Origin: a bacterium
GTDB taxonomy: Bacteria > Bacillota_I > Bacilli_A > RFN20 > CAG-826
Assembly: GCA_963651465.1 (NCBI GenBank)
Contig: CAVJPS010000012.1
Coordinates: 66,179-130,178, forward strand
DNA length: 64,000 nucleotides
Direction of reading: 5' to 3'
The number at the start of each line of letters is the position of its first letter. Within the stretch, counting starts at the first letter, position 1. This document shows, piece by piece, positions 10,384 to 64,000 of this stretch. The notes under the pieces were generated by a model. The model made no database searches. It had not been told where the DNA came from and saw only the letters and a program-made list of their open reading frames with translations. The translations under genes and the position numbers were made by a program.

Positions 10384-12405
10384 TTAATTGAGTTTTTGGT
10401 CTGATTTATTATCTTCTTTTGGTGGTTCGTAACCATCTTTGTTATATTCTTTAACATACTTTAAGAATTCTTTTTCTGGTAAAGCTTCAGAATAGAAAAA
10501 TCCTTGATGTCGGTATAAGCCTAAGTTTTCAAGATAAGTTTTGTGTTCTTCAGTTTCAACACCTTCCACAATAGAGGATAAATTAAGAGATTTAATTAAA
10601 TTAACAATTGTTAAGAAAATTGAATTCTTAAATTCACTAGGGTCTGCATTTACTGCAGTATATAAAACAGTTTTATCAATTTTTACCGTGTTAACAGGTA
10701 AATCAAAGATATATGAAAAGTTAGCGTAACCACTACCGAAATCATCAATTGCGATACGGAAACCATTTTCAACAAATCTATTAATAGTTTGTTTAATAGT
10801 AGTAATGGATGAAGATTCTTCTGTTTCAGTAATTTCGATAATAATAGCATCAGGATTTACCTTATATTCATTTACAATAGCAAGAAATTTATCAGCAAGA
10901 GTAGCATCTTGACATTGACGCATAGAAATATTAATACTTATATGTCTTACTCCTAGTTTTTGAACTTTGCCGGTTGCTAAGAATTTAACTACTCGGCGGA
11001 ATATTTGTTCACCAAGTTCATGAATAAGACCATTCTTTTCAGCAATTCTAACGAATAAATCAGGAGAAATATATTCTTCGGTAATAGGATCTTTTAATCT
11101 ACATAATGCTTCACAAGATTTAACAAGATGATGTTGAGCAGAAATAATTGGTTGATAATAAACTTCTATTGTATTATTTTTAACTGCATCAAGTAGTACT
11201 CGTTCTGTACGACGTTCTTGATTAATCTTCTTGTAGAATGATTCAGTAGGACAATAAATTGTATTGTGATTTTCATAACGTGATTTAGCAAAATAATGAT
11301 GTGCTGCTTCAATTGCGTTATTAATACCATCTAAAGTTGTAAGATATGGATTTCTTTCAAGATAACATAATTTAACATTAGTCTTAATTTGAATACCATT
11401 AGAGAAAAGATTTTTTTCAAATTTATTAATGTACAATTCAAGCATTTGATCAGTTAACCTTTTGTGTTTGATAACGATAATAAATGTTCCTGAACCATTA
11501 GAAAACACAGGATTAGGTTTAAATTCTTTTTTAATTTCAGAGGAAAATTTTCTAGTAAAACTTGATACAATTGTAGCATTGTAGTTTTCGGTAAGCTCAT
11601 TATATGATTCAAATCTAATAAATAATAACGATATTGGAATACCTTCTTTTAATGCTTCTTCGACATATAATTTAAGTGCTTTACCATAAAATGTATTTGA
11701 AATTTTATCAACATAATGATTAGGTAGTTCAATTGAAATAAATAGAACTGCGCAAGCAATAGTAGCAGCTGTCGGGATTAAAACGATATTTTTATTTCTT
11801 AATAGTCTATACACAATATTAATAGAAATAGCAATAAGTTCAGCAAGTGCGTAGGAAATATATGCTGTACGTCTTTTTGCATTGAAATGATTATTGAATA
11901 ATCCAAATAATGCAGCAGTAATAACATAAATGCCTGGAATAATATACATTAGAAGATATAAGGGACCATGCTCAAATACATGAGTTTCTGGATTTACATA
12001 GAATAAGCTGTTATTTGTAAATGGAATTGCAAGTAATAAAATAGTCATTACAAATTGTGGTATGTAGAACAACCAACATTTTTTTAGATTTTTATGAGTA
12101 TAGAATCCTATAGAAGTCATTACGTATAAGAAGAAAAGCATTGTATTAGCACAAGCAATAAAGACATATAAAATACTCATACCGCGAATTAAAAAAATTG
12201 GGTATGCTTTAGGATTCCAAGTGAAAATGCCACATATTATACTAAGACATAAACCAGTAATGTTAAAAGTAATTAATAATTTAAAGAATTTACTTCTTAG
12301 AATTGGTAAGTGCATCATTCTAGCGTAGTAAATTGAAATAAGAATCATAAAAGCGAGTGAACAAACAGTATAGGAAATTACGTCTGGCAAATGATGGTCT
12401 AACAT
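10384..12405 (-). CDS. Membrane sensor protein: N-terminal polytopic (MASE-like) domain, a degenerate GGDEF-like module and an intact EAL (c-di-GMP phosphodiesterase) domain.
   Basis: About 9 predicted TM helices in the N-terminus. EAL motifs EALCRL, NISMRQ, EITE, DDFGSGYANFSY, KIDKT, EGVETE and QGFFYS are present. No GG(D/E)EF signature (NGSGT instead). The ORF track start is a TTG at 12423; an ATG at 12405 is preceded by GAAGGTG. Confidence 0.7.
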   Translation of the reverse strand: MLDHHLPDVISYTVCSLAFMILISIYYARMMHLPILRSKFFKLLITFNITGLCLSIICGIFTWNPKAYPIFLIRGMSILYVFIACANTMLFFLYVMTSIGFYTHKNLKKCWLFYIPQFVMTILLLAIPFTNNSLFYVNPETHVFEHGPLYLLMYIIPGIYVITAALFGLFNNHFNAKRRTAYISYALAELIAISINIVYRLLRNKNIVLIPTAATIACAVLFISIELPNHYVDKISNTFYGKALKLYVEEALKEGIPISLLFIRFESYNELTENYNATIVSSFTRKFSSEIKKEFKPNPVFSNGSGTFIIVIKHKRLTDQMLELYINKFEKNLFSNGIQIKTNVKLCYLERNPYLTTLDGINNAIEAAHHYFAKSRYENHNTIYCPTESFYKKINQERRTERVLLDAVKNNTIEVYYQPIISAQHHLVKSCEALCRLKDPITEEYISPDLFVRIAEKNGLIHELGEQIFRRVVKFLATGKVQKLGVRHISINISMRQCQDATLADKFLAIVNEYKVNPDAIIIEITETEESSSITTIKQTINRFVENGFRIAIDDFGSGYANFSYIFDLPVNTVKIDKTVLYTAVNADPSEFKNSIFLTIVNLIKSLNLSSIVEGVETEEHKTYLENLGLYRHQGFFYSEALPEKEFLKYVKEYNKDGYEPPKEDNKSDQKLN

Positions 12406-12713
12406 GGTTTCACCTTCTTTCAATTACTGAGGGCTTAAAAATATTTATCATTAATTTAATTCTCGTATATATATTATAAACCAAATATAATATAATTGTG
12501 ACAATATAAAGTGTAAATAAATGGTAATGTGTTTGAAACATCAAAATATACTAGTTTTAAAAGCAAAAAAAACTTGTTTTTTTAATTTATCAAATAGAAA
12601 ACAAAAAAATAAAAAAAACGCTAAATTTATGCTATAAAACGATATTTACGATGTTGAAAATTTCTCTTTTTTAATTTAAACTAATTGTAAAGAAAGGTAG
12701 GTTTTTTTACAAC

Positions 12714-14746: not shown

Positions 14747-15414
14747 TTTAATATTCTCCTTTTATCAATTTTTTTAGCAATAAACAATCCTGATTCTTGA
14801 ATAATTTGAACTAAAATAATTACTACAATAATTAGGATCCAGAAAGTTGCACTTTCTAAATAGTTACCAGTATGACGAGTATAATATGACCAAATACCAC
14901 TAATTAAACCACCAGCACCAATGTTATATGCAAATGAAGTATATGTGAGTATTGAAACACTACTGACAGCAAATCCTGAAATTAATGAAGAACGTGCTTC
15001 AGGAAGTAATACTTTCATAATAATTTGGAAATTAGAAGCCCCTAATGATTTAATAGCTTCTATTTCTCCAGCTGGTACTTCGTTTAAAGATTGTTCTACC
15101 ATACGAGCAACAAAACCAAAGGCTGAAACAATTAATGGTAATAAGATTGTGTACCATTCTCCAGTACCAACACCAAAGATTTTACGAGTAGCTGGCATAC
15201 ATAAGACTACTAAAACTAAACATGGAATGGAACGTAAAATATTAACGATTAAACCAATAATAAGATTTAGAGGTCTGTTGGGACATAAACCTTTTTTGGA
15301 TGTTACATTTAATAAAATACCAATTGGTAAAGCGATAATATAAGAACATATAGAAGAAATGATAGTCATAGCGAGAGTTTGCCAGGTTAGAGTGAATAAA
15401 TTAGCCCAATCCAT
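14743..15414 (-). CDS. metI: Methionine ABC transporter permease.
   Basis: 5 TM helices with an EAA-like loop (IEAIKSLGAS...IMKVLLPEA). Its ends overlap metN and metQ. Confidence 0.8.
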   Translation of the reverse strand: MDWANLFTLTWQTLAMTIISSICSYIIALPIGILLNVTSKKGLCPNRPLNLIIGLIVNILRSIPCLVLVVLCMPATRKIFGVGTGEWYTILLPLIVSAFGFVARMVEQSLNEVPAGEIEAIKSLGASNFQIIMKVLLPEARSSLISGFAVSSVSILTYTSFAYNIGAGGLISGIWSYYTRHTGNYLESATFWILIIVVIILVQIIQESGLFIAKKIDKRRILK

Positions 15415-16372
15415 TTTGATCTACCTCCTCATATAGAATTTTTTTAAGTTTTAAATACTTTATTAATTTCTTAACTTCTTGTTCATCGGTTGGCTTTTTA
15501 ATAATAAGTTGTCCATAAACTCTATTATCTACAACTCTTGAATCAGCGTAAACAATAGAAACTTGAATATGACAATCTTCAACAATATTAGCTAATAATG
15601 GAGTATCAATTTCACCATTAAAAATTAACTTAATATATTTTGAATTATCTAACTTAGTATTAACGTGACCTGAATAGATGAGCTTTTTAGCTATATCAGT
15701 TTTAGGTGATAAGAATACATCATATAATGGACCACATTCAACAATTTTAGAATGATCAATTATTGCAACCTTATTACATATTTCTTCAATTACAGACATT
15801 TGATGAGAAATAATAATAATTGTTAAATTAAGTGATTTGTTTAATTCTTTTAATAATTCAAGAATTTGTTTTGTTGTATCAGGATCTAACGCTGATGTTG
15901 CTTCATCACATAATAGAATTTTTGGGTTTGTCATTAATGCACGAGCAATTGCGACTCGTTGTTGTTGACCACCCGATAGTTGACTTGGATAAGAATCAAG
16001 TTTATCACTAAGACCAACTCTATTTAATAAATCAATAGCTTTTTGATGACTTTCATTATCGTGAACAATTTCACCAGCCAATTCAACATTTTTTAAGACT
16101 GTACGTTGTTGTAATAAATTGAATTGTTGAAAAATCATTGCTACATTACGACGGTATTCTCTTGTAAATGTTACTTTTTCACCTTTGTAATAAATAGAAC
16201 CTAAGTCATAATTTTCAAGTCCATTAATACAACGCACAAGAGTTGATTTACCAGCGCCGGATAATCCTAAAATTCCATAGATATCACCTTCGTTAATGGA
16301 TAAACTAACGTTATCTAACACAAGATGTTCACCAAAGACTTTAGAAAGATTCTTGATTTCTAATATATTCAT
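15401..16372 (-). CDS. metN: Methionine ABC transporter ATP-binding protein with a C-terminal NIL domain.
   Basis: Walker A GLSGAGKST, signature LSGGQQQRVAIARAL, Walker B LLCDEATSALD, and a C-terminal NIL-like extension. Confidence 0.85.
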   Translation of the reverse strand: MNILEIKNLSKVFGEHLVLDNVSLSINEGDIYGILGLSGAGKSTLVRCINGLENYDLGSIYYKGEKVTFTREYRRNVAMIFQQFNLLQQRTVLKNVELAGEIVHDNESHQKAIDLLNRVGLSDKLDSYPSQLSGGQQQRVAIARALMTNPKILLCDEATSALDPDTTKQILELLKELNKSLNLTIIIISHQMSVIEEICNKVAIIDHSKIVECGPLYDVFLSPKTDIAKKLIYSGHVNTKLDNSKYIKLIFNGEIDTPLLANIVEDCHIQVSIVYADSRVVDNRVYGQLIIKKPTDEQEVKKLIKYLKLKKILYEEVDQNGLG

Positions 16373-16382
16373 TTTTTGCTCC

Positions 16383-16690
16383 TTTCTGCTAGGGAAAGAA
16401 AAAAATCTCGCCCTATTGCTATTTCAGCTAAGGACGAGATATAAATAATAATATCACGTGTTACCACCTTAATTCACTTACTTAATCACTTAAGTAAGCC
16501 TCAAAGAGTACCAACATACTCATTTGCTATAACGGGCATACCCGATAAAGATTACATATCACCTTTATAGCTCCAAGGCCATGTTCAGTTCGTTTCTGTT
16601 ATCTTCTTTCACCAAACGAAGACTCTCTATAAACATAATTAAGAACTTACTCATCCTTTTCAACGCTTATGACTATATTTTAATGAAAAA
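16383..16690 (-). promoter_or_regulatory. T-box leader (tRNA-sensing riboswitch) upstream of metNIQ, with a transcription-terminator expression platform.
   Basis: Read on the minus strand, the conserved T-box sequence aattaaggtggtaacacgtg lies at about 16455-16476 (consensus AAUUAGGGUGGUACCGCG). It is followed by a terminator hairpin atctcgtcc...gggcgagat and T7 at 16399-16440. The upstream Stem-I region has an AGAGAG element and a loop containing AUG, the candidate specifier codon. Confidence 0.6.
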
Positions 16691-48672: not shown

Positions 48673-48838
48673 AAATAAAATCTCCTTTTTTCAATTTTCG
48701 ATTTATTATAGCACTTTTTAATGTAGGCTGTTTAGTAGTTTTTTAGACTTTTCCACAAAAAAAGTAAAAAAATTAATAATTTTTTAAAGTTATTATTAAA
48801 AAATGATATATTTTAATTATCTATTGAGGTGGTATGTT

Positions 48839-49726
48839 ATGTATAACAAGGGACTTATTATAACAAATGGGTTCGTTTTGTGGTCAGGAACCAAGCATAT
48901 GGTTTTAAGATTAATTGAAGAATTTAAGAAATTAAATATTGAAATCGACCATAAAATGAATAATGAAATTTTTACTTTTATTGATAGTGACGGGAATATT
49001 AAAACTAGTGATTTACCATATGATTTTATTATTTTCTTGGACAAAGATTTATATGTTTCTACTTTACTTGAAAAAAGTGGATATCGTTTATTTAATAAAG
49101 CCGAACCTATTAGATTTTGTGATGATAAGATGTTAACTCATATGCTACTTGCAAACAATAATATAAAAATGCCAAAAACAATTTCTTGTCCACTTCAATA
49201 TGCTCCAGGTGATAAAAAAGAATTTTTAGATTGCTTATGTAATACACTTACATTTCCTTTTGTAGTAAAAGAAATATATGGATCTTCTGGCAAACAAGTT
49301 CATTTAGTTTATACACGAACTCAATTAAATGAATTAGAGAAAACATTAGGTTATAAGCCTCATATTTACCAAGAATATATTAAAGAGTCTAGTGGTACAG
49401 ATTATAGAATTATTGTTATCGGTCATAAAGTTGTTGCTCATATGCGTAGACAAAGTACCGACGATAATGAATTTAGAAGTAATATTGAAACTGGTGGAAT
49501 AGGAATAATTGATGAATTAGATCCAAAATTTGCGAAAGTAGCAATTAAAGTTTCTGAACTTTTAGATTTAGATTATTGTGGTGTTGATTTACTTATTGGT
49601 AATGATAATGAACCAATTTTATGTGAAGTTAATTCTAATGCATTTATATCTGGAATAGAAAAATATAGTGGTTTAAATGTTGCTAAAGAATATGCTTTAT
49701 ACATCCAAAAAAATATATATAAATAA
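48839..49726 (+). CDS. RimK-family ATP-grasp ligase (alpha-L-glutamate ligase-like), paralog 1.
   Basis: Block-by-block similarity to RimK: PFVVKEIYGSSGKQVHLV, IYQEYIKESSGTDYRIIVIG, EFRSNIETGG and CGVDLL...ILCEVNSNA. RBS GAGGTGG lies before the ATG at 48839; the track start is 48803. Confidence 0.7.
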   Translation: MYNKGLIITNGFVLWSGTKHMVLRLIEEFKKLNIEIDHKMNNEIFTFIDSDGNIKTSDLPYDFIIFLDKDLYVSTLLEKSGYRLFNKAEPIRFCDDKMLTHMLLANNNIKMPKTISCPLQYAPGDKKEFLDCLCNTLTFPFVVKEIYGSSGKQVHLVYTRTQLNELEKTLGYKPHIYQEYIKESSGTDYRIIVIGHKVVAHMRRQSTDDNEFRSNIETGGIGIIDELDPKFAKVAIKVSELLDLDYCGVDLLIGNDNEPILCEVNSNAFISGIEKYSGLNVAKEYALYIQKNIYK

Positions 49727-50263: not shown

Positions 50264-50336
50264 GTTTAAATATAATACATAGGTAAATTTTAATTTTATG
50301 CTTAATATGTTAAAATAAAAACAAGGAGGTATGCAT

Positions 50337-51224
50337 ATGTTTAATAAAGGTTTAATTATAGTAAATGCGTATTGTGTATATGCGTCAGTAGAACATCAAG
50401 CTCGTCGTTTAGTTGATGAATTTAATAAACTTGGTGTTACTATTGATATTAAAGAAAATAATTTTGGAGCTTGTTTCATTTCACGTGGAACAATTGAAAC
50501 AAATATAAGTGGATATGATTTTGTTATCTATTTAGACAAAGATGCATACCAAGCAGAATTAATTGAGAAATTTGGTTTCCCAGTTTTTAATAATTCAACT
50601 GCATTAGCAAATTGTGATGATAAAATGAGAACTAATATTCTTCTTGCAAGTAAAGGTATTGAAACTCCTAAAACTATTAGTGCACCATTCTGCGCTCGTA
50701 ATGTTAACGACTTTGACTTCAGTGAAGTTGTTCGTAAAACATTAAATTATCCTATTATGTGTAAAGAATGTTATGCATCTTTTAGTGCACAACCTTACTT
50801 AATTAAAAACGATAAAGAATTACGTTTAATCGAAGAAAAAATGATTTATAAAAAACATTATTATCAGGAATATCTTCCTTCTTCTAGAGATGTTGATTAC
50901 CACATACTTTTAATTAATAAGAAGGTAGTTGCAGCTGTTAATCGTCATACTGATGATCAGCATAAGACAAGTATGAATCAAAATAGTTTTGGTGACACCA
51001 TTTGTGAATTGCCAAAACAATATGTTGAATGTGCTGAAAAAGTAGCTGAATATTTAGATTTGGATTATTGCGGTGTTGTCCTTTTAATCGGGGATAAATC
51101 TCAACCTGTCGTTTGTGATGTTGACGCTAATGCTTTCTTTGCAGGAATTGAAAATTCTAGTGGATTAAACATTGCAAAAATGTATGCTGAATACATTATT
51201 TCACGTGTTTATCCTACACGTTAA
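50337..51224 (+). CDS. RimK-family ATP-grasp ligase, paralog 2.
   Basis: Same block structure as paralog 1: ANCDDKMRTNILLA, HYYQEYLPSSRDVDYHILLI and CGVVLLIGDKSQPVVCDVDANAF. RBS AAGGAGGT is followed by ATGCATATG; the second ATG at 50337 has the better spacing. Confidence 0.65.
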   Translation: MFNKGLIIVNAYCVYASVEHQARRLVDEFNKLGVTIDIKENNFGACFISRGTIETNISGYDFVIYLDKDAYQAELIEKFGFPVFNNSTALANCDDKMRTNILLASKGIETPKTISAPFCARNVNDFDFSEVVRKTLNYPIMCKECYASFSAQPYLIKNDKELRLIEEKMIYKKHYYQEYLPSSRDVDYHILLINKKVVAAVNRHTDDQHKTSMNQNSFGDTICELPKQYVECAEKVAEYLDLDYCGVVLLIGDKSQPVVCDVDANAFFAGIENSSGLNIAKMYAEYIISRVYPTR

Positions 51225-55612: not shown

Positions 55613-55842
55613 AAAATAGAAAAGTTCAAAAATATACATTAATGAGATAAAAAGAGGGCACATATGTTGAGTTTTTTGCAAAAAATCGCAAAAAAATGTA
55701 AATATTAGCCTTCTTTTATTTGTTTTAAAAAATATATGTGTTAAATTTAAAATGAGGCTAACTAGCATAGTCGTCTTTTTTGACGTTCTCTTATGAGAGC
55801 ATTAAAAATGAATTAAATTTTAATAGAAGGAGGTCTGACCAT

Positions 55843-58842
55843 ATGGAGTTTAAACAATACGTTAAACGTAATTATAGTAAAGCTGTACGTCCGATTATAG
55901 GTTTAGCTATTATAATGCTTGCTGGTATTGGTGCATATTTATACTTTAAAATTGATTATATTTTATATGGATTGTTGGCTGTTCCATTAATATTCCTTTT
56001 AATTATGCTTTTGACTTTTAAGAAATCAAATAAGAAAGTTGGAGCTATGATTAAAAAAGAATTTGAAGTTGTAAACCACTCGGTTCAAGATTTATCAAAC
56101 AACGAATTTTCACCTATTTCAGAGAAATCACCATTAGACGAAATGGAAGATTTACATAAATACATTAATGATACAATTGATGCTTTCCGTCAAAGACATT
56201 ATAGTGCTGTTGATAAATCTATCTCACTTGTTAATGTTAAATACGCTCGTGAAAATGTCTTAACTTTTGATTCATTTAGTGAAAATTTAGTTCGTTTAAC
56301 TTCACGTCAATACTTATATCATTCGGCTGTTGTTGCAGTTCAAATGATTGGTTCAGAAAAGCCTGATTACTTAAACGAATTAGTTAATAAATGTAAAGAA
56401 GTTTTAAATCCAGCTTTAATTGGTGAATTTGATCACGAAACTGTTATTTTATATATCTCGTATGTTACTAATACTAGTATTCTTATGTCACAATTAAGAA
56501 CACTTATGTCAGAATATCATAAGATTGAAATATTAAGAGATGGTACTCAACAATTATATTCTTGTAAATGTGGTGTTGCTATCTTCCCATATTCTGCAGT
56601 TGATAAACTAGTTAATGACGCTATTGAAGCACTTGATGAAACTAAAAATGTTGGTTTACAAGATTATGGTATCTTTGAACCTTCAGATGATGTTGTTCTA
56701 GATACAAATGAAAAATTCCGTCGTTCAATTCTTTATCTAGAAACTATTAATAAAAACCTTGAGCGTTGTACAACATTTAAGGAATTAAATAAACAAATCC
56801 ATGAAGGTATTAAATTATATTGTCGTATGATGGGATTTGATAATGCAGGTATTATGCTTGTTCAAGATGGTGGACGTCGTTTAGTTCCTTGGTTTGAATA
56901 TAGTGTTTCACCTGACCAATCTGGCTTTGTTTCTTATGATTCACTTCAAGTATCTCGTTTAAACGAATACTTAAACTTATTTGATAACTCATCTTCATTA
57001 TTTGGTACTAACATTGAAGATTTACCTTTCTCAGTTAGAAGTATTTTCTATAACTTACAAATCGAACGTTATTACCACTTTAAAATGTTAAAAGGCCCTC
57101 AACTTAAAGGTGTAATTTATTTTAACAATACTGAAGAACAACCAGAGTTTACTATTATTGACCGTGAAATTATGATTTGTGCTTGTAACATTTTACATTC
57201 AATGGTTAATATGTACATGGCTCAAAAGAATGTTGAAAGACAAGAACTTATTTTATCAACACTTTTAAAACGTGATGATAAATATATTTATGGTATTAAC
57301 AATAAGACTAACGAATTAACATATGTTAGTACTCAATTACAAAAAATTTATCCAAACGCTCGTGTTGGTGTTAAATGTTTCAATATTTTTAACACTGAAC
57401 AAAACAAGATTTGTGATTGCTGTCCATTAAAAATTGGTAATGGTATGGCATATCGTCCAAAACTTGGTGAAGAAATCATTATTTCTACTTTAGCTGCGTT
57501 ACCATCAGAAGAAAATGAAGTATTAATCTTACTTGAAAATAACGAAGCTAAACGTCGTCTTGATAATGAATTATATGATCCATTACTACACGTATTTAAC
57601 TACAAGAAGTTACAAATGGACTATGAACGTGAACTTGCAACTAAAGGTATGGGTTATATCTTCTTCATTGAAATTCATGAATTTGAAAAACACATTCCTA
57701 TGTATGCAATGGAAGGTGAAAAGAAGATTCTTCAAGAATTATTAAGGCGTTTTGAAATCTTAAACTTCCAAGATGAAGTTTATCGTTATAATAAATCAAC
57801 TCTTGGTATTATCTTAAAACGTTATACTCGTAAAGAAGTATTAAACATTGTTGAAAACATCTTCAATGAAATGATTAAACCTATTCAAGGTGAAAAAGAA
57901 TCATTCTCAATTGAATTTAATGCTTCACTTTTACCTTATCCTGGCGACTTATTTGATGTTAAACAATTAGATAGTGCTGTTGAATCTACATTACAAGATG
58001 CTAGAGATGTTGGATTAAATAACTTATATATTTATGGTGAAAAAGGCGCTCGTAAACTTAATCGTGAAGATTACATTCTTGATATTGTTAAAGATGCTAT
58101 TGCTAACTCTAAGTTTGAAGTGTTCTTACAACCTATCGTATCTGTTAATGATAAAAAACCAATTAGTGCTGAAGCGTTATTACGTTTAAACGATCCAACT
58201 CGTGGATATATTCCACCTAGTGAATTCGTTCCAATTGCTACTAGAAATAATTTAATGTTTGAAATCGAACAATATATTATTGATTCTATTGGTGATTTAT
58301 GGAAAGCACATGGTTACGAAATTTTCCAACAAATCGGTGTTACAAGTATGTCAATTAACATTTCTTCAAACTCAATTTGCAACCCTACATTTGTAGATAG
58401 AGTTAGTGCTTTATTAAACAAGCATAGATTCCCAACAGGGTTCTTAAAATTTGAAGTTAATGAAACTATCGTTCTTGAACATTTTGACACTGTTAGAAGC
58501 GTAATGTCTACATTACACGATAAAGGTGTAACATGGGCGATTGATAACTACGGTATGGCAGTTTCATCAAATAAAACTTTCCAAAACTTAGCTATTTCAG
58601 AAATTAAAGTTGACCGTTCTTGTATTATGGATATTGAAAGATCTCAACGTTCTAAAGTTGCTTTATCTTATATTGTTGACTTTGCAAAAGAAGCACATAT
58701 TAGTTTAGTTGCTGAAGGTGTTGAAACAGAAGGACAATTTGAAATCTTAAAAGATATGAAGTTTGAAAACGCGCAAGGTTATTTATTCTCTAAACCTATT
58801 CCAATTAGAGAATACTTAAAATACTTAAATTTCAACTCTTAA
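55843..58842 (+). CDS. Large membrane-anchored signalling protein: 2 TM helices, degenerate GGDEF-like and GAF-like modules, and a C-terminal EAL domain with a DNYG variant of the DDFG metal-binding motif.
   Basis: EAL motifs EALLRLND, INISSN, FEVNE, AIDNYGMAVSS (canonical DDFGTGYSS), KVDRS, EGVETEGQ and QGYLFSKP. No intact GG(D/E)EF. RBS AAGGAGG lies before the ATG at 55843; the ORF track start is 55780. Confidence 0.7.
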   Translation: MEFKQYVKRNYSKAVRPIIGLAIIMLAGIGAYLYFKIDYILYGLLAVPLIFLLIMLLTFKKSNKKVGAMIKKEFEVVNHSVQDLSNNEFSPISEKSPLDEMEDLHKYINDTIDAFRQRHYSAVDKSISLVNVKYARENVLTFDSFSENLVRLTSRQYLYHSAVVAVQMIGSEKPDYLNELVNKCKEVLNPALIGEFDHETVILYISYVTNTSILMSQLRTLMSEYHKIEILRDGTQQLYSCKCGVAIFPYSAVDKLVNDAIEALDETKNVGLQDYGIFEPSDDVVLDTNEKFRRSILYLETINKNLERCTTFKELNKQIHEGIKLYCRMMGFDNAGIMLVQDGGRRLVPWFEYSVSPDQSGFVSYDSLQVSRLNEYLNLFDNSSSLFGTNIEDLPFSVRSIFYNLQIERYYHFKMLKGPQLKGVIYFNNTEEQPEFTIIDREIMICACNILHSMVNMYMAQKNVERQELILSTLLKRDDKYIYGINNKTNELTYVSTQLQKIYPNARVGVKCFNIFNTEQNKICDCCPLKIGNGMAYRPKLGEEIIISTLAALPSEENEVLILLENNEAKRRLDNELYDPLLHVFNYKKLQMDYERELATKGMGYIFFIEIHEFEKHIPMYAMEGEKKILQELLRRFEILNFQDEVYRYNKSTLGIILKRYTRKEVLNIVENIFNEMIKPIQGEKESFSIEFNASLLPYPGDLFDVKQLDSAVESTLQDARDVGLNNLYIYGEKGARKLNREDYILDIVKDAIANSKFEVFLQPIVSVNDKKPISAEALLRLNDPTRGYIPPSEFVPIATRNNLMFEIEQYIIDSIGDLWKAHGYEIFQQIGVTSMSINISSNSICNPTFVDRVSALLNKHRFPTGFLKFEVNETIVLEHFDTVRSVMSTLHDKGVTWAIDNYGMAVSSNKTFQNLAISEIKVDRSCIMDIERSQRSKVALSYIVDFAKEAHISLVAEGVETEGQFEILKDMKFENAQGYLFSKPIPIREYLKYLNFNS

Positions 58843-58851
58843 TTGCATTAA

Positions 58852-58880
58852 AAGCACTTGCTCCGGCAAGTGTTTTTTTG
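58852..58880 (+). terminator. Rho-independent terminator.
   Basis: Hairpin cacttgc-tccg-gcaagtg followed by T7. Confidence 0.55.
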
Positions 58881-59073: not shown

Positions 59074-59102
59074 TTGCATAACTTAATTTTATATTATAAA
59101 AT
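59074..59102 (+). promoter_or_regulatory. Candidate sigma-A-type promoter upstream of the TasA-like gene trio.
   Basis: TTGCAT-N17-TAAAAT, 135 nt upstream of the first ATG. Confidence 0.3.
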
Positions 59103-59236
59103 AAGATTGCTAGATTATCGGTTTTTCGATTTGCCCTGATCGATAGTAAATCCGTTAATGTAGTTTTTCGTTAAAGTCATGATGACTTAGAAAACAAAAT
59201 CCATTAGAGAATTTTATAGAAAAGGAGATTAAAATT

Positions 59237-60127
59237 ATGAAAATTAACAATAGACTCTTAATTACATCAGGCTTATTGTTAGGTCTTTCAACTGTAGCTA
59301 TGTCAACTGCAACTTATGCATGGTTTACAGTTAACAAAACGGCTAGTATGACAGCTACTGGTTCAATTAAAGCTGAAGCTGGTGTTGAACTTGGCTTAAT
59401 TGCAAGTGGTGGCCACGAAGCTGTTGAATATAAAGAAAGTCAAACAATTAATTTAGGTGACCATTCAATGACAGATATTTCTGGTAATGGTGCATCTTTA
59501 TTCAAACCTGTTTTTGCTTCTAACAATACATCATTCTCAAGTGTTAGAACTATTACAAATAATGGTTTAACAGGGTATGAAGATACATTTATCGTAGCTC
59601 AATTAAAATTCCGTTCCGATAAAGCTTATAATGTATATGTTGGTCAAAGTGCTGATATTTTAAGTGGTGAATTAGCTGTTGCAGCTCGTTTAGCTATTTT
59701 TGATAGCGGAAAAGTTTCAACTGCAACTGCCCCAAGTGCTGCTACTTTGAAACAATTCATTTATAGCGGAACAATTGAAAATGAATACTATATTAGTGCA
59801 GATACTGCTACCAGTACAGCTACAACAGGTGAGGGTGGTACTGCAGCTACAGGATATACAGCAATTAGTGATTTCACAGGTAATACAGTTGTTTCAGATG
59901 TTGTAAATGAATATACTTCAATCGCTGATGCTGACGCTCACTTAAATCCTTTAACAACCTTAGTTGAAGATGGTACTTATTCTGATGGTGACCATAAAGG
60001 TGAAAAAGCTTTTACAGGTGCTTTGACAGTTGTAATTTGGATTGATGGTGCTGACACAGATTGTGGTAACGAAATTGTTGATGGCAGTTTAACCGTTACA
60101 CTTCCATTTGCTTTCTTAGCTGCTTAG
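59237..60127 (+). CDS. Secreted protein with a SipW-cognate (TasA/camelysin-class) signal peptide, paralog 1.
   Basis: N-terminus MKINNRLLITSGLLLGLSTVAMSTATYAWFTVNKTAS. The TYAWFT motif fits the T-(W/F/Y)-A-x-F-(S/T) signature of SipW-dependent signal peptides (TasA GTWAAFND, CalY GTFAFFSD). The beta-rich mature region is Ala/Thr/Gly-rich. RBS AAAGGAG. Confidence 0.55.
   Translation: MKINNRLLITSGLLLGLSTVAMSTATYAWFTVNKTASMTATGSIKAEAGVELGLIASGGHEAVEYKESQTINLGDHSMTDISGNGASLFKPVFASNNTSFSSVRTITNNGLTGYEDTFIVAQLKFRSDKAYNVYVGQSADILSGELAVAARLAIFDSGKVSTATAPSAATLKQFIYSGTIENEYYISADTATSTATTGEGGTAATGYTAISDFTGNTVVSDVVNEYTSIADADAHLNPLTTLVEDGTYSDGDHKGEKAFTGALTVVIWIDGADTDCGNEIVDGSLTVTLPFAFLAA
59579..59766 (+). 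repeat. 188-bp block 100% identical to 60488-60675 within otherwise diverged paralogs (gene-conversion tract, copy A).
   Basis: Direct comparison of the two gene sequences. Identity runs from gaagatacatttatcgtagctc... to ...caattcatttatag. Confidence 0.8.
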
Positions 60128-60145
60128 GTTTTGGAGGTATTGAAT

Positions 60146-61069
60146 ATGAAATTGAATAAAAAAATATTTGTTACTTCATTATTATTAATGGGACTTTCAA
60201 CTGTAGCTATGTCAACTGCAACTTATGCATGGTTTACAGTTAACAAAACAGCTAGTATGACAGCTTCTGCAACAATTAAATCAGAAGCTGGTGTCGAAGT
60301 CGGTTTAGTTGCAAGTGGTGGTCACGAAGCTAAAGATTATGAAGAAGAAGCTACTATTGATTTAGGCAGCCATTCAATGACAGATATATCTGGTAATGGT
60401 GCGTCTTTATTTAGACCTATTTTCGCATCAAATAACAATGACTTCTCAAGCGTTACAACTATTACAGAAAATGGTTTATCAGGCTACGAAGATACATTTA
60501 TCGTAGCTCAATTAAAATTCCGTTCCGATAAAGCTTATAATGTATATGTTGGTCAAAGTGCTGATATTTTAAGTGGTGAATTAGCTGTTGCAGCTCGTTT
60601 AGCTATTTTTGATAGCGGAAAAGTTTCAACTGCAACTGCCCCAAGTGCTGCTACTTTGAAACAATTCATTTATAGTGGATCAATCGAAAATGAATACTAT
60701 ATTAGTGCAAATACTGCAACTAGTGTTACTACTAATAATGATGGAGTTGCAGCTACAGGATATACAGCAGTTTCTAATTTTGATACACTTGATGCTGCAA
60801 GTGAAAACGACAGATTATATCATACAGTAATTAGCGATGTTGTAAGTGAATATACAACACTTGACGATGCTAACGCTCATTTAAATCCATTAACAACATT
60901 AACTAAGGACGGAAAATACCCAACAGGTCATAAATTTGCAGATCAAGATGCTTTTACCGGTTGTATAACTGTTGTAATTTGGGTTGAAGGCGCTGATAAA
61001 GATTGTATAAATGATAATATTAATAAATCATTAACTGTTGACCTTCCATTTGCATTCTTATTAGCTTAA
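60146..61069 (+). CDS. Secreted protein with a SipW-cognate signal peptide, paralog 2.
   Basis: N-terminus MKLNKKIFVTSLLLMGLSTVAMSTATYAWFTVNKTAS. About 75% identical to paralog 1 overall, with 100%-identical blocks. RBS GGAGGT lies before the ATG at 60146; the track start is 60131. Confidence 0.55.
   Translation: MKLNKKIFVTSLLLMGLSTVAMSTATYAWFTVNKTASMTASATIKSEAGVEVGLVASGGHEAKDYEEEATIDLGSHSMTDISGNGASLFRPIFASNNNDFSSVTTITENGLSGYEDTFIVAQLKFRSDKAYNVYVGQSADILSGELAVAARLAIFDSGKVSTATAPSAATLKQFIYSGSIENEYYISANTATSVTTNNDGVAATGYTAVSNFDTLDAASENDRLYHTVISDVVSEYTTLDDANAHLNPLTTLTKDGKYPTGHKFADQDAFTGCITVVIWVEGADKDCINDNINKSLTVDLPFAFLLA
60488..60675 (+). repeat. 188-bp identical block, copy B (see 59579-59766). 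A second 56-bp identical block covers the signal-peptide region (59285-59340 versus 60193-60248).
   Basis: Direct sequence comparison. Confidence 0.8.
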
Positions 61070-61077
61070 TCAACTAA

Positions 61078-62025
61078 ATGAAATTCAATAGAAGAATATT
61101 AATTTCTTCAATTGTATTATTTTCATTATCAACAGCATCTGTGGCTTCGGCTACTTATGCATGGTTTACGGTAAATAAAACTGCATCTATGTCCATTGGT
61201 GCTACTTTTGACACTGATGCTGACATTGACATTGGATTGCTTAAATCTGGTGGATTTGATGCAGTTGATTATCGTGCAACTAGTGATAGTAAAATAGTTC
61301 TATCAAATAGATCATTAACGGATGTTTCTGGTCAAGGAACAACGTTCTATAAACCAATTTTCGCTTCAAATAATGTTGATTTTTCATGCATTGAAGTAAT
61401 TGACTTCAAAAACGAGGCTTCTAAATCTGATAATTTCTATTTCGTAACGGCTGCTTTAAAGTTCCGTTCAAACGAGGAATATCGAGTTTATATAGGAGAA
61501 ACTAATCATGAGGGGGTTATTTCTGGAGCTTTAGCTCCATGTGTGAAAATAGCTTTCTTTGATGGTGGTTCATATAGTGCAAATCCAGAGGTCTTACCTG
61601 ATGGAAATCAATTGAAGCAAATCATTTATGATGGTGACGCTGATGATTATTATCTAGATAGTACTAGTGCTAAAAGTATTCATACTGAAAACGAAGGAGT
61701 AATTAGTAAAGGATATGGTAGATATAGTGATCTTTCTACTGGAAATGTAGATGATGCACCTATATATCGTTCTGATGTTGTCAAAAAATACACATCAGAT
61801 GAAGCAGCTTTAAGCGATGGACTTAATACCTTAACAACTCTTACCGATTCAGGTACTACCTATAATGTAGTTGAAGATGGTATGGTTAAAACATACCAAC
61901 TATATGAAGCTTATGTTATTGTAGTTATATGGATTGAAGGGGTTGATCCTCAATGTACAACAGCTATTTCTAATGGCTCATTGAACTTAAAACTTGGTTT
62001 TCAATTTATGAATAACATTAAGTAA
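61078..62025 (+). CDS. Secreted protein with a SipW-cognate signal peptide, divergent paralog 3.
   Basis: N-terminus MKFNRRILISSIVLFSLSTASVASATYAWFTVNKTAS and a mature-region architecture collinear with paralogs 1 and 2 (…FASNN…ALKFRS…Y(V/I)GE…IAFFDGG…LKQIIY…). Confidence 0.5.
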   Translation: MKFNRRILISSIVLFSLSTASVASATYAWFTVNKTASMSIGATFDTDADIDIGLLKSGGFDAVDYRATSDSKIVLSNRSLTDVSGQGTTFYKPIFASNNVDFSCIEVIDFKNEASKSDNFYFVTAALKFRSNEEYRVYIGETNHEGVISGALAPCVKIAFFDGGSYSANPEVLPDGNQLKQIIYDGDADDYYLDSTSAKSIHTENEGVISKGYGRYSDLSTGNVDDAPIYRSDVVKKYTSDEAALSDGLNTLTTLTDSGTTYNVVEDGMVKTYQLYEAYVIVVIWIEGVDPQCTTAISNGSLNLKLGFQFMNNIK

Positions 62026-62035
62026 TGATTAAGAG

Positions 62036-62072
62036 GCTCTATATTAAGTAGAGCCTCTTTTATTATTATTAA
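62036..62072 (+). terminator. Rho-independent terminator after the TasA-like trio.
   Basis: 11-bp stem aagaggctcta / tagagcctctt followed by TTTATTATT. Confidence 0.6.
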
Positions 62073-62168
62073 ATCAAAAATTTTCTTTTTTTTTGACATA
62101 AAAATGGAATATTACTATTGTAATAGTAATAAAAAAATGTAAAAATAATTATGATAGGGGTGGTGTAA

Positions 62169-63077
62169 ATGCCAGAAGAAAAAATTGAAAATGATGAAAA
62201 AATGGCTAACACACAAGAAACAAGTGAATCCGCTCCTGTTTTAACTAAAAAAGAAAAAGTTAAAAAGGGATTAAGTATTGGATTTACAGTTGTAGAAGTA
62301 ATTGTTGTTGTATTTCTATTAATCGTATCTTTATTAAGTATGGCTAGTACAACTACAAATGCTAGTGGCGTTTCGAGTAATCCAATTACTGGAACATCAT
62401 TATTTCCAGTATTAACAGATTCTATGTCTCCAACATTTAGTGCTGGTGACTTAGTATACGGTAAGCAATTTAAAGATGCTGAAAAAGATCCTGATGGCCG
62501 TTTAATTGAACTTTCTAAACTTGAAGGTGACGATACTAAAGGGGAAAATCAAGGGGATATTATTATTTACTGGGCTAAAATCCATGGTGATAATGTTATT
62601 GTTACTCACCGTATTCGTAGAGTTGAGTATGTTTATAAAGACGCAGCAAAAACAATTATAAGTACAAGAACTATTAATGGTGAAGAAATTCCAATTAAAT
62701 GTTTCTATACTCGTGGTGATGCTGAAACTTGGAAAGATGAAGCAGAAAAAGAAAGTATTACATTAGCTGTTAGTAGTTCAGATATTATTGGTTACTACCA
62801 AGGACATGTTAAATACGTAGGTGCAATTATCAATGGTTTACAAAATAATAAGACAGTAATGTTCTTTGCGTTAGTATTCCCACTTATTGCTCTATTTATT
62901 TGGAATGGTTATTCGTTTATCCGTATTATATTCATTAACAAAAAAGAAACTGCTATTGAAAAAATTAATACCGAGCATGAAGAAGAAAAGGCTAAACTTC
63001 TTGAAGAAGCTAAACGTCTAGCGATGGAAGAACTTCGAAAAGAAATGGAAGCAAATAAAGAAAAAGACGATAAATAA
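62169..63077 (+). CDS. sipW: Type-W signal peptidase I (SipW-like, archaeal/ER-type S26B) with an N-terminal cytoplasmic extension, a C-terminal TM and a charged coiled-coil tail.
   Basis: The catalytic Ser box is VLTDSMSPTFSAGDLV (SipW has SGSMEP). GDIIIY, VTHRIRRV (the THR(I/V) His box) and YTRGDAETW (the TKGDNN-like box) are present. The canonical bacterial SxxxxK Lys box is absent, consistent with a Ser/His W-type enzyme. The protein is flanked by TM helices. It lies immediately downstream of three SipW-cognate-signal genes. Confidence 0.7.
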   Translation: MPEEKIENDEKMANTQETSESAPVLTKKEKVKKGLSIGFTVVEVIVVVFLLIVSLLSMASTTTNASGVSSNPITGTSLFPVLTDSMSPTFSAGDLVYGKQFKDAEKDPDGRLIELSKLEGDDTKGENQGDIIIYWAKIHGDNVIVTHRIRRVEYVYKDAAKTIISTRTINGEEIPIKCFYTRGDAETWKDEAEKESITLAVSSSDIIGYYQGHVKYVGAIINGLQNNKTVMFFALVFPLIALFIWNGYSFIRIIFINKKETAIEKINTEHEEEKAKLLEEAKRLAMEELRKEMEANKEKDDK

Positions 63078-63082
63078 CTTAT

Positions 63083-63110
63083 AAAAGCGACAAAAAAGTC
63101 GCTTTTTTTA
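63083..63110 (+). terminator. Rho-independent terminator.
   Basis: Hairpin aaagcgac-aaaaaa-gtcgcttt followed by TTTTTT. Confidence 0.55.
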
Positions 63111-63443
63111 ATCTTTTTAATGAAAAGTAACGATTTTATGGTTTCTTTTCTTTTTTTGTATGGTATTATAAAAATGTAGATTTGGTAAGGATAATATATT
63201 TATATATTATTTAAAAGTCTACTAATCTTGGTTTAGGGCACTAAGATTATTAACAATTTAAAAGCAATTTTATATATTGCAGAACAAGTTGATGAACATG
63301 AATTTTGATTGTTTAGACTTGATGTATTGCTTATTCTCTAATGGTCATTTTAAATAATGCGAGTAATACAAAAAGTTAAAAATGAGAAAAAGGAAAGTCA
63401 TTTGCTCTTTTTTGCATTTACACATTAAGAAAGGAGAATGCGT

Positions 63444-64000
63444 ATGGTAGACGATAAGGATTCTATTTCTACTGAGGATTTAAATATTAATCTTGATAAT
63501 CCTTCTGGTGTAGAAAAATCTAAGAAAAGATCAATATATGATACTACGAATCCATATGAGAAATATAAGAAGTATAAAGATCCTGTAGCTGCACGTTACA
63601 GAAAAAAGATGCTTGCAAATTTCTTTGTATCGGCTTCTATTATCGCAATCATCATTATTGTGTTTATTGCATATATCGGTTCAATGGTTGGTAACTACAC
63701 TATTGAATTACAAAGAGATCAAAAATCATTAACACTTAGTGATGAAGATCCATTCTTCAACAATTCTACTACAAGACTAAATGCTGAGTCAGTTCAATCA
63801 TCATATTGTATTGGTTATCATGAAATTTTAGCAGAAGGTGACGAAATACTTGATTATGCTGGTGGTGCTCATAATGAATATACAGGTTCTACTGGCAAGT
63901 ATATGGCATACACATTCTTTTTAAAGAACGGTTCCCTTAGACCAGTTAATTTCTGTTATGACATTAATATTGATGGCATAAAAAGGTCTAATGAAATATC
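63444..64000 (+). CDS. Hypothetical membrane-anchored protein, 5' part; the frame continues past the window end.
   Basis: RBS AAGGAG lies before the ATG at 63444. The frame is open to nt 64000. One TM helix (FFVSASIIAIIIIVFIAYI) is followed by an extracytoplasmic domain. It sits next to the sipW/TasA-like cluster. Confidence 0.45.
   Translation, partial: MVDDKDSISTEDLNINLDNPSGVEKSKKRSIYDTTNPYEKYKKYKDPVAARYRKKMLANFFVSASIIAIIIIVFIAYIGSMVGNYTIELQRDQKSLTLSDEDPFFNNSTTRLNAESVQSSYCIGYHEILAEGDEILDYAGGAHNEYTGSTGKYMAYTFFLKNGSLRPVNFCYDINIDGIKRSNEI

Follow-up and report, generated by a model that had tools for sequence, protein, structure and literature searches.

What do the secreted proteins encoded at the end of this 64,000-nucleotide stretch of bacterial DNA (the window) build, and do they belong to the TasA/camelysin fibre proteins, as an earlier note had proposed? 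Three tandem genes with a shared signal-peptide ending are followed there by a signal peptidase gene and the start of a gene for a membrane protein. We find that this region is the first, promoter-proximal half of a conserved, unnamed gene cluster of gut Firmicutes. The cluster most likely builds a cell-surface protein fibre that resembles TasA, from a protein family other than TasA's.

A conserved cluster of paralogous secreted proteins

All three tandem paralogs were found on the forward strand with the shared signal element (Table 1). Paralog 2 probably starts at the ATG at 60146, because a GGAGG lies 7 nt upstream, and would then have 307 rather than 312 residues. It is 76% identical to paralog 1, with which it has a 188-nt identical run in common; the two keep an identical core and diverge in their C-terminal halves. 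Paralog 3 is more divergent (42% identity to paralog 1), with the same ATYAWFTVNKTAS element and a C-terminal WIEGVDPQC motif. The mature proteins, which had been put at ~300 aa and described as Ala/Thr/Gly/Ser-rich, measure about 268-287 aa, and that composition holds for paralogs 1 and 2, less so for paralog 3. The AF2 model of paralog 1 (pLDDT 86.7) has an N-terminal helix (residues 5-32) followed by an all-beta domain, and the subunit fold is thus predicted to be beta-rich. The family is large, with 2,667 cluster representatives, and profile searches of Pfam and NCBIfam found it in neither.

Table 1. Features in the window, with coordinates and strand
Feature	Position	Strand	Description
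Second EAL protein	10384-12423	-	
Degenerate-GGDEF, intact-EAL membrane protein	55780-58842	+	Directly upstream of fibre genes
Terminator-like hairpin	58850-58877	+	12-bp stem, then T run; ends EAL gene
Paralog 1	59237-60127	+	ORF, 296 aa; proposed major subunit
Paralog 2	60146-61069 (alternative start 60131)	+	ORF, 307 aa from ATG 60146
Paralog 3	61078-62025	+	ORF, 315 aa
Terminator-like hairpin	62031-62059	+	12-bp stem, T-rich tail; after three subunit genes
Promoter-like TTGACA-17-TATTGT	62093-62121	+	3' of preceding hairpin
Signal peptidase 1	62169-63077	+	302 aa, ER/archaeal/SipW type
Terminator-like hairpin	63083-63106	+	After peptidase gene
Signal-anchored paralog, 5' part	63444-64000	+	185 of 456 codons; open frame to window end

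The cluster occurs in uncultured Bacilli and in Clostridia, and a synteny check in related genomes recovered the same parts in 22 loci (Bacilli MAGs, Ca. Alloenteromonas, Oscillospiraceae, Ruminococcus, Lachnospiraceae and the isolate Blautia sp. MSJ-19). Several of the paralogs are cleavable, and one, whose gene is truncated here by the window end, is uncleavable and anchored in the membrane. They are accompanied by SipW-like peptidases (one or two), an AAA+ ATPase that is McrB-like and membrane-bound, a coiled-coil DUF2357-like protein and, often adjacent, an EAL or PilZ protein. The module described earlier is only half of this cluster of more than 10 genes, although a fibre or matrix function is still the best reading of it. 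Judging from homologous loci, two more paralogs, a second peptidase and the AAA+/DUF2357 pair lie outside the window, past its end. Paralogy extends to all subunit classes: the two larger downstream proteins match the family HMM (2.6e-16 and 3.7e-15) and carry the variant signals GGTFAWY and VTLAWF, and profile comparison joins the anchored class to the paralog family (probability 95.7%, E 1e-8, 232 columns).

In the anchored paralog, a Lys-rich cytoplasmic tail accompanies a single TM helix (about 54-87). Its full-length ortholog (L002/L005) combines the family beta domain, bearing WVEGGDLEC, with a Big_2 domain at the C-terminus (52 bits). Because the TM helix is present and the AW[FY] cleavage element is absent, we propose that the protein stays in the membrane as an anchor or terminator subunit. 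The suggestion that this gene encodes a TapA-like factor came near the mark in that the protein is a membrane-anchored relative of the three paralogs, but no TapA homolog was detected in the cluster, unlike B. subtilis tapA-sipW-tasA.

The protein directly upstream of the fibre genes has TM segments at about 35-83, an EAL domain (PF00563, 189.7 bits) and a GGDEF domain (PF00990, 33.7 bits) whose GG[DE]EF site is degenerate (YRYNKSTLG; NKSTL). The window does contain two EAL proteins, as had been noted, but the accompanying statement that no GGDEF domain lies near them does not hold. The same EAL protein is directly upstream of the cluster in four loci (L001, L003, L004 and L008), an EAL protein also adjoins it in L010 and L014, and PilZ proteins adjoin it in L012 and L017. 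The upstream protein may be the cluster's c-di-GMP regulator or receptor, a link once called speculative and now better founded. It is separated from the fibre genes by a hairpin, and the 360-nt leader 3' of that hairpin has no Rfam match. The hairpin that follows paralog 3 is consistent with shaft subunits being highly expressed, and it could act as an attenuator that sets the excess of major subunit over accessory proteins.

The signal element, its peptidase and family membership

The N-termini of the paralogs read ...AMSTATYAWFTVNKTAS twice and ...SVASATYAWFTVNKTAS once, and in paralog 1 the signal peptide would comprise residues 1-28, with proposed cleavage between TYA and WF. ATYAWFT is invariant across 29 homologs whose identity elsewhere is only about 30%, and its conservation is not due to chance. 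Conservation in these 29 homologs peaks over the first 31 residues: 24 of these 31 positions are at least 90% conserved, compared to a mean column identity of 43%. Even among 90 homologs at about 20-25% identity, W29 never varies, and conservation of A28 and F30 is still 90% or more. In a profile alignment the signal peptides end in T-aromatic-A followed by aromatic-F (TaT[fy]A before the cut), in register with GGTWA/AFND of TasA. The SipW-cognate-like ending is real; the likeness to the TasA signal peptide could partly reflect generic signal-peptide composition.

The peptidase, read earlier as W-type, is by its sequence of the ER/archaeal/SipW (S26B) Ser/His type. Its boxes are TDSMSP, VTHRI and TRGD, and the Lys box is absent; S85 and H147, invariant in 15 homologs, are assigned as catalytic residues, and D184 is a further residue of note. 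Its best NCBIfam matches are SipW NF046067 (38.7 bits) and TIGR02228 (37.5 bits), both below cut-off. The family profile matches human SEC11A/C, its best solved relatives, at E 1e-12, but E. coli LepB only at 0.04-0.06, which argues against the alternative of a P-type LepB enzyme. The described TM flanks and ~50-aa tail are also there: two TM segments are predicted from hydropathy (about 31-64 and 227-251), and behind them lies a conserved, charged coiled-coil tail.

In contrast to the signal element, membership of the paralogs in the TasA/camelysin family is not supported. The three proteins match neither PF12389 nor TIGR04088 at E <= 1, and PF12389 is matched, marginally, by 1 of 90 relatives. 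Comparison of mature-only profiles revealed no similarity to TasA (E 0.37), and a PDB profile search with the mature-domain family gave nothing at E <= 10, no solved fibre subunit included. Foldseek with the paralog structure model gave nothing below E 0.1. The proposed AlphaFold comparison yielded a weak match of the model to TasA, with generic beta-sandwiches scoring at least as well.

A proposed fibre and competing explanations

We favor, at a probability of roughly 55%, a donor-strand-exchange fibre with tip, shaft and anchor subunits that are processed by a SipW-type peptidase. Sec would export the three paralogs, which the unusually conserved signal peptide would hold in the membrane until the dedicated SipW/Sec11-type Ser/His peptidase cuts after ...T-Y-A. 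The new N-terminus, W-F-T-V-N-K-T-A-S..., could then insert as a donor strand into the beta-sandwich of a neighbor, as in TasA, BsaA and archaeal bundling pili, yielding a non-covalent polymer. The residues right after the cut in TasA (28-38) form its donor strand (PMC9674648), and an aromatic is conserved at position 2 of other donor strands in the TasA superfamily (10.64898/2026.01.04.697558). The larger downstream paralogs may be minor or tip subunits, the anchored paralog would anchor or terminate the fibre, and the adjacent degenerate-GGDEF/EAL protein probably links production to c-di-GMP. The AAA+/DUF2357 pair occurs in all loci that extend far enough to include it, while the known TasA-type systems considered here need no ATPase; the invariable pair thus suggests a mechanism that is missing from the fibre model.

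Polymerisation is itself a matter of inference, and the paralogs might instead be non-polymerising surface or secreted proteins (adhesins, binding proteins or a surface coat) with a private peptidase and a shared sorting signal, in which case the anchored paralog would present the same binding module tethered to the membrane. Its adhesin-type Big_2 domain would suit that role, and the diverging C-terminal halves of paralogs 1 and 2 around an identical core are expected of variable binding surfaces. We consider this unlikely: the invariant aromatics fall right after the predicted cut in the TasA donor-strand register, the hairpin that follows the small paralogs hints at control of stoichiometry, and a set of several small paralogs, larger ones and one uncleavable anchor is typical of multi-subunit fibres.

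The constant ATPase would also fit two explanations that we regard as far less probable. If the N-terminal hydrophobic helix were retained in a helix-bundled, type IV pilus-like filament, the AAA+ protein would drive assembly, leaving the SipW-like enzymes only to trim or to act on something else; strongest conservation at the N-terminus, as in type IV pilins, and the continuous, confident AF2 helix spanning TYAWFT agree with this. AF2 usually draws signal peptides as helices, however, and we found no class III signal (no Gly at -1, no Glu at +5) and no PilD-, PilB- or PilC-like protein among the cluster proteins scanned; moreover, the ATPase belongs to the AAA_5/McrB type rather than to the secretion ATPases, and the cluster invariably encodes one or two Ser/His signal peptidases. 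Barely less doubtful is an ATP-driven envelope machine, such as a defence or export device, with the secreted paralogs as substrates or extracellular parts. The AAA+ core indeed matches the PADLOC defence-candidate model PDC-M26A (E 4e-37), and DUF2357 is known from McrC-type proteins. The similarity is confined to the ATPase core (positions 233-433 of 724), though; scans of the DUF2357-like partner, signal peptidase 1 and paralog 1 against PADLOC returned no match, and a PHROGs search was empty except for an Ig domain. The upstream genes are housekeeping genes in conserved order (MgtE, pseudouridine synthase), not a defence island, and the EAL/PilZ neighbors point to surface or biofilm control.

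Comparison with known systems

As in B. subtilis tapA-sipW-tasA, the gene for a dedicated Ser/His ER-type peptidase adjoins those of its substrates; the signal peptides share the TasA ending and register, the mature part is a beta-sandwich (here an AF2 prediction), and the peptidase has a C-terminal cytoplasmic tail like that of SipW, to which a non-peptidase role of SipW has been assigned. Such a second role of SipW is reported (Terra et al. 2012). The mature domains have no detectable sequence homology to TasA, and the subunits are larger (about 270-285 aa versus about 234 aa). Gene order differs as well: beside three shaft paralogs the cluster encodes two larger ones, an anchored one and a second peptidase. 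TasA systems also lack an AAA+/DUF2357 pair. As in McrBC-type pairs, an AAA_5-type ATPase core is always followed by a protein with a DUF2357-like N-terminal domain, but here the ATPase has an N-terminal membrane segment, its partner has a long coiled-coil or acidic tail with no nuclease domain detected, and the pair sits among secreted-protein genes.

SipW-peptidase fibre systems outside Bacillus are already known from C. perfringens (BsaA) and archaea (PMC7395162, PMC11580942). The sipW-bsaA-bsaB-bsaC operon, likewise from a Firmicute outside Bacillus, also combines SipW with several paralogous matrix proteins. Bsa proteins are reported to be remote TasA homologs, unlike the cluster paralogs, and an Asn-Lys isopeptide bond locks BsaA. 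The Bsa system further includes BsaC, a von Willebrand A protein, and depends on type IV pilus proteins for secretion (PMC7395162, PMC11580942); neither of these two components was found in the cluster. In the published Bsa model, monomers held by their signal peptides exchange strands at the membrane and are then cleaved by SipW (PMC7395162, PMC11580942), which by analogy would also fit the uncleavable anchor subunit.

The cluster family lies outside the named TasA-superfamily clades, with no sequence match to solved members. Its peptidase has 2 TM helices, whereas that of AbpX loci is described as having 10; the cluster showed no DUF5305 accessory protein, and the AAA+ ATPase is universal here while the word "ATPase" is absent from the AbpX preprint (10.64898/2026.01.04.697558). 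As proposed for the cluster, the AbpA, AbpX, Tafi and 0406 thread loci are multi-gene: besides major and minor subunits they encode a tip protein, an anchor in the membrane or cell wall, signal peptidase I and enzymes of c-di-GMP (PMC9245690, 10.64898/2026.01.04.697558). Their subunits have an aromatic at the start of the donor strand, as the paralogs do in the proposed one. The organisation of these published TasA-superfamily loci (10.64898/2026.01.04.697558) speaks in favor of the proposed fibre.

Paralogs with a common signal element

The three tandem genes preceding the signal peptidase gene (listed with the other features in the table) encode proteins, here called paralogs 1 to 3, that have a common N-terminus, MK(I/L/F)N..(L/I).(I/V)(T/S)S...L.(G/S)LST(V/A)..(M/V)(S/A)(T/S)ATYAWFTVNKTAS, with paralogs 2 and 3 being 76% and 42% identical to paralog 1. 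The earlier note's description of three tandem paralogs with a common signal element is thus correct, and is also borne out by the open reading frames. The surrounding sequence is AT-rich throughout (24–34% G+C across the window). The 360-nt leader before paralog 1 was searched with Rfam for c-di-GMP and other riboswitches, with no match at gathering score and none that was convincing at E ≤ 1.

Coordinates and properties of the features in the window and of cluster proteins encoded past its end (window positions, unless a homologous locus is named)
Feature	Position	Strand	Remarks
Second EAL protein	10384-12423	-	679 aa; EAL 186.8 bits
T-box leader (RF00230)	16427-16672	-	130 bits; upstream of minus-strand gene 15401-16372
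RimK-like ATP-grasp protein	48803-49726	+	145 bits
RimK-like ATP-grasp protein	50331-51224	+	73.8 bits
Upstream EAL protein	55780-58842		Membrane protein
Terminator-like hairpin	58850-58877		3' of upstream EAL gene
Paralog 1	59237-60127	+	296 aa, ORF
Paralog 2	60131/60146-61069	+	Most likely start ATG at 60146, behind GGAGG
Paralog 3	61078-62025	+	315 aa, ORF
Terminator-like hairpin	62031-62059		3' of paralog 3
Signal peptidase 1	62169-63077	+	302 aa, ORF
Terminator-like hairpin	63083-63106		3' of peptidase gene
Open frame running off the window	from 63444	+	AAGGAG 8 nt upstream; full-length product 456 aa, downstream of peptidase 1
430-aa protein			Signal ...LVGGTFAWYVVSNTGTA; motif WFEGWE
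619-aa protein	L005 7257-9116		Signal ...GGVTLAWFSYGN; motif WLEGWDRDC
Second SipW-like peptidase			NF046067 56.6 bits
92-aa membrane protein	L005 10030-10308		Just before AAA+ ATPase gene
511-aa protein			N-terminal membrane segment and AAA_5-type ATPase core
788-aa protein			Acidic coiled-coil protein, last of the listed cluster parts

These proteins belong to a large family for which neither Pfam nor NCBIfam holds a model. A database search returned 28 relatives, none with a Pfam domain, and the sole name on any of them was 'hypothetical protein [Bacilli bacterium]'; the subunit orthologs in Blautia sp. MSJ-19 are likewise named 'hypothetical protein' in RefSeq. ATYAWFT is invariant in the alignment, in which 24 of the 31 first positions are at least 90% conserved and mean column identity is 43%, most of the sequences sharing only ∼30% identity with the query. 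At E ≤ 1e-3, an exhaustive profile search returned 2,667 cluster representatives (50% identity), 482 of them at E ≤ 1e-10. Across a 90-sequence family alignment (∼20–25% identity), W29, W268 and G271 are invariant, with conservation of 90% or more at A28, F30, G85, R151 and E270. Two signatures describe the family: [ST]-[YFLVI]-A-W-[FY], with which the signal peptide ends, and W-x-[ED]-G-x-[DE]-x-x-C, which lies about 30 residues before the C-terminus. Judged by this conservation, the motif at the signal end is not a product of chance. Structure prediction for paralog 1 gave a first model with pLDDT 75 and a second, built with the 90 sequences, with pLDDT 86.7 and pTM 0.84; the second model has a helix at residues 5–32 followed by an all-beta domain, and its confidence is lowest at residues 31–50. 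This low confidence and the conserved W-F just past the predicted cut are indirect signs of a possible N-terminal donor strand.

The entire signal peptide is near-invariant, beyond the cleavage element (residues 1–31, encoded at 59237-59329, 60146-60238 and 61078-61170). The stretch MKLNHRLLITSGLLLAMSTVAMSTATYAWFT is identical in ∼20 proteins that, past it, are only 30–35% identical to paralog 1. Signal peptides usually drift fast; conservation over this full length goes beyond the needs of cleavage, and would be compatible with retention of the helix. Separately, paralogs 1 and 2 share 188 nt of perfect identity (59579-59766 and 60488-60675), while the rest of the two genes is 55–80% identical per 60-nt block and overall DNA identity is 78%. 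This pattern points to a recent gene-conversion event between the two neighbouring genes that left their C-terminal halves free to drift apart.

The earlier note had placed the paralogs in the TasA/camelysin family, and this assignment did not hold. Scans of paralogs 1 to 3 against Pfam and NCBIfam were empty, with no match at E ≤ 1 to either PF12389 (Peptidase_M73) or TIGR04088 (SipW-cognate class signal peptide), and PF12389 was matched by one of the 90 family members, marginally (E 0.0076). As a positive control, genuine TasA proteins were retrieved, all of them annotated with PF12389, and 30 were aligned. Comparison of the 90-sequence family with these 30 by hhalign aligned only 53 N-terminal columns (probability 65%, E 6e-5), with TsTyAWFT placed opposite GGTWAAFN. 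With both profiles divided at the proposed cleavage sites, the signal-peptide parts gave E 3e-5 with their ends in register, and the mature domains alone gave E 0.37. PDB sequence searches with one protein and two profiles returned chance matches or none. By sequence, then, the paralogs are not relatives of TasA or camelysin. In structure the picture is ambiguous, the second model having an all-beta domain and Foldseek finding nothing in the PDB below E 0.1. What does stand is the SipW-dependent type of signal element: T-aromatic-A followed by x-F lies in register with the TasA cleavage site (TATYA|WFT and GGTWA|AFN). The earlier note's reading of the region as a fibre module is thus partly supported: it was right on the peptidase and on the signal element, and a fibre is still probable, but the family assignment was wrong and the larger cluster described below went unnoticed.

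Other secretion and assembly routes were weighed against the same proteins and rejected. A type IV pilin would carry a class III signal, but the N-terminus MKINNRLLITSG... lacks both Gly at -1 and Glu at +5, and as for the prepilin peptidase and PilB-type ATPase of such pili, the cluster proteins gave only AAA_5, DUF2357, S26/S24, Big_2, PilZ and EAL/GGDEF matches. Attachment as a sortase pilus is opposed by the C-termini (...LPFAFLAA, ...FAFLLA and ...FQFMNNIK), which have no LPXTG, transmembrane segment or basic tail, and the cluster proteins that were scanned include no sortase; lipoprotein processing is opposed by the lack of Cys in the signal region. A phage origin was likewise rejected, the only PHROGs match being to the Ig domain of the anchor protein, and so was a known defence system, the only PADLOC match being that of the ATPase core to a candidate model.

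A divergent SipW-type signal peptidase

Signal peptidase 1 scored 38.7 bits against the NCBIfam SipW model NF046067 (curated cut-off 190 bits), 37.5 against TIGR02228 (cut-off 51.85 bits) and 19 against the bacterial model TIGR02227, all under the curated cut-offs; it represents a divergent peptidase subfamily. None of its 43 database relatives has a precomputed Pfam domain, and RefSeq names the peptidase of the Blautia cluster 'signal peptidase I'. A 15-sequence peptidase profile matched human SEC11A and SEC11C with E 1e-12, and Escherichia coli LepB, the P-type enzyme, with only E 0.04–0.06. Both S85 (TDSMSP) and H147 (VTHRI) are invariant in the 15 homologs, the RGD box is mostly kept, and the Ser, His and Asp boxes align with those of SEC11A (SGSMEP, VHRV). 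There is no Lys general base in peptidase 1. Thus, the W-type Ser/His architecture that the earlier note recognized is upheld, and on this alignment evidence the protein belongs, as a divergent member, to the Ser/His signal peptidases of the ER/archaeal/SipW type (S26B). The outcome named in the earlier note as speaking against its reading, a protein scoring as P-type LepB, did not arise. Hydropathy places two membrane segments on either side of the catalytic domain, and the C-terminal tail is conserved (...HEEEKA.(I/L)LEEAKRLA(L/M)EEL.KE...). Between the hairpin of paralog 3 and the peptidase gene lies a promoter-like TTGACA-17 nt-TATTGT (62093-62121), and the peptidase gene may have its own promoter; in the promoter scan overall, the number of sites was not above that of shuffled sequence.

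A larger conserved cluster and its neighbours

Near-identical contigs from the closest assemblies, GCA_963623825.1 and GCA_963632345.1, run past the end of the window, and a check of synteny in related genomes found the same module as the first half of a larger conserved cluster. The 456-aa protein has a Lys-rich cytoplasmic tail, one transmembrane helix, the C-terminal motif of the family (WVEGGDLEC) and a Big_2 domain, and is without the AW[FY] element. An alignment of 14 orthologs matched the family profile over 232 columns (probability 95.7%, E 1e-8), so this protein is a signal-anchored paralog; the consensus of its tail is ...NPYEK(Y/F)K.(Y/F)KDPVA.RY.... The 430- and 619-aa proteins matched the family HMM with E-values of 2.6e-16 and 3.7e-15. 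For these downstream proteins, comparisons of single-sequence profiles gave motif-level matches only, and the paralogy needed larger alignments to be seen. The 619-aa paralog, the largest, has an acidic loop resembling an EF-hand, DSNEDGTISLEEEE (PF13202, below cut-off at E 0.039), and the family motif W-x-E-G-x-D is acidic too. Calcium-triggered assembly has been described for AbpX and cannulae, and is a possibility here too. The 92-aa ORF is a duplicate of the N-terminal membrane segment of the ATPase, is matched by the ATPase query, and occurs only in the window's lineage.

Relatives in a scan of species-representative genomes come from Bacilli MAGs, Candidatus Alloenteromonas, Oscillospiraceae and Ruminococcus, and further carriers are Lachnospiraceae, Marvinbryantia, Cuneatibacter and the isolate Blautia sp. 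MSJ-19. Profile comparison puts the Clostridial paralogs clearly in the same family (hhalign probability 99.7%, E 8e-27). At least two cleavable paralogs and one to two SipW-like peptidases are present in all 22 non-redundant loci. An anchored paralog is clear or weakly matched in every locus but the short fragment L026 (3,993 bases), the weak cases being five loci in which the anchor HMM weakly matched a cleavable paralog only (L011, L013, L025-L027). The ATPase is present in 20/20 loci that reach far enough, and the next coiled-coil protein in all 17 that reach further still. Between the window's lineage and Blautia, the ATPase is 41% identical and the DUF2357-like partners share 30% identity over 327 residues; in Blautia, the partner's DUF2357 match (39 bits) agrees with its RefSeq name. 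The ATPase cluster of one Blautia relative was found on at least 1,000 contigs.

The upstream EAL protein carries a GGDEF domain (33.7 bits) with a degenerate GG[DE]EF site and an EAL domain (189.7 bits) with its motif intact. The earlier note had seen no GGDEF near the EAL proteins; the domain is present, but no active cyclase was found. A homolog of this protein directly precedes the cluster in four loci (L001, L003, L004 and L008). This adjacency could be inherited gene order, because the MgtE and pseudouridine-synthase genes upstream are syntenic in the Bacilli lineage too. The cluster has an EAL neighbour in two further loci, one from an Oscillospiraceae MAG (L010) and one from Ca. Alloenteromonas (L014), and a PilZ protein (35.5 bits) lies inside it in Blautia (L017) and a Eubacteriales MAG (L012); the recurrence of EAL and PilZ in unrelated arrangements argues for a functional c-di-GMP link. 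In the second EAL protein of the window, no GGDEF domain was found at E ≤ 1e-5. Elsewhere in the window, the two RimK-like genes, which are paralogs, lie near each other, and a RimK gene is syntenic in L003 too.

Proposed fibre assembly and comparison with TasA-type systems

TasA-type protein fibres are scaffolds of Bacillus and archaeal biofilms, and SipW-peptidase fibre systems outside Bacillus are already known. In TasA, SipW cuts GGTWA|AFND, and the stretch right after the cut, residues 28–38, serves as the donor strand by which the next subunit is completed (PMC9674648). AbpX-type fibres have a conserved aromatic residue at donor-strand position 2, which acts as a clamp (10.64898/2026.01.04.697558). 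In the published model for BsaA, each new monomer stays in the membrane through its signal peptide while the free N-terminal strand of the growing fibre enters it, after which SipW releases the new N-terminus (PMC11580942). If the cluster follows the same logic, cleavage at TYA|WF would leave the invariant W-F exposed at the head of a strand-forming segment (WFTVNKTASMTATGSIKAEAGVELGLI). Incorporation would begin with the larger paralogs, as tip or adaptor subunits; the shaft would consist of the three abundant paralogs, and growth would stop at the paralog that lacks a cleavage element, which would also tie the fibre to the membrane. Drawing on anatomy and analogy, we put the probability of this donor-strand mechanism as a whole at slightly better than even (roughly 0.55).

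With respect to the ATPase, the papers on TasA-type and donor-strand fibres that we compared with the cluster make no mention of one. We speculate that three conserved cytoplasmic elements could touch the ATPase pair: the tail of the anchored paralog, the tails of the peptidases and the ATPase's own N-terminal membrane segment. A broader proposal, which we think unlikely, is that the cluster represents a new class of gut-Firmicute surface-fibre machine, in which a TasA-like, peptidase-released donor-strand fibre would be coupled across the membrane to a cytoplasmic McrB-like AAA+/DUF2357 complex via the uncleavable anchor and the conserved cytoplasmic tails of the SipW-like peptidases, under the control of c-di-GMP. 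If this were true, assembly, anchoring or release of the fibre would depend on nucleotide hydrolysis. If the products are fibres, then abundant gut Firmicutes, among them Blautia, Ruminococcus, Oscillospiraceae and uncultured AT-rich Bacilli, possess a major surface or matrix structure that has escaped notice. Since Blautia sp. MSJ-19 is a cultured carrier, the fibre question is directly testable.

A limited literature search found no published description of the cluster. Loci resembling those of the TasA superfamily, which combine a peptidase and c-di-GMP enzymes with subunits of the major, minor, tip and anchor kinds, have already been described; as described, such loci (10.64898/2026.01.04.697558) have in common with the cluster a dedicated peptidase, minor or tip subunits and an anchor. 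The large unmodelled subunit family, the divergent peptidase subfamily and the obligatory AAA+/DUF2357 pair appear to be new. The membrane-bound McrB-like AAA+ protein and its DUF2357-like coiled-coil partner are universal in the cluster, and the constancy of this pair, together with the recurring EAL and PilZ proteins, raises a concrete question of mechanism that does not arise for known TasA-type systems.
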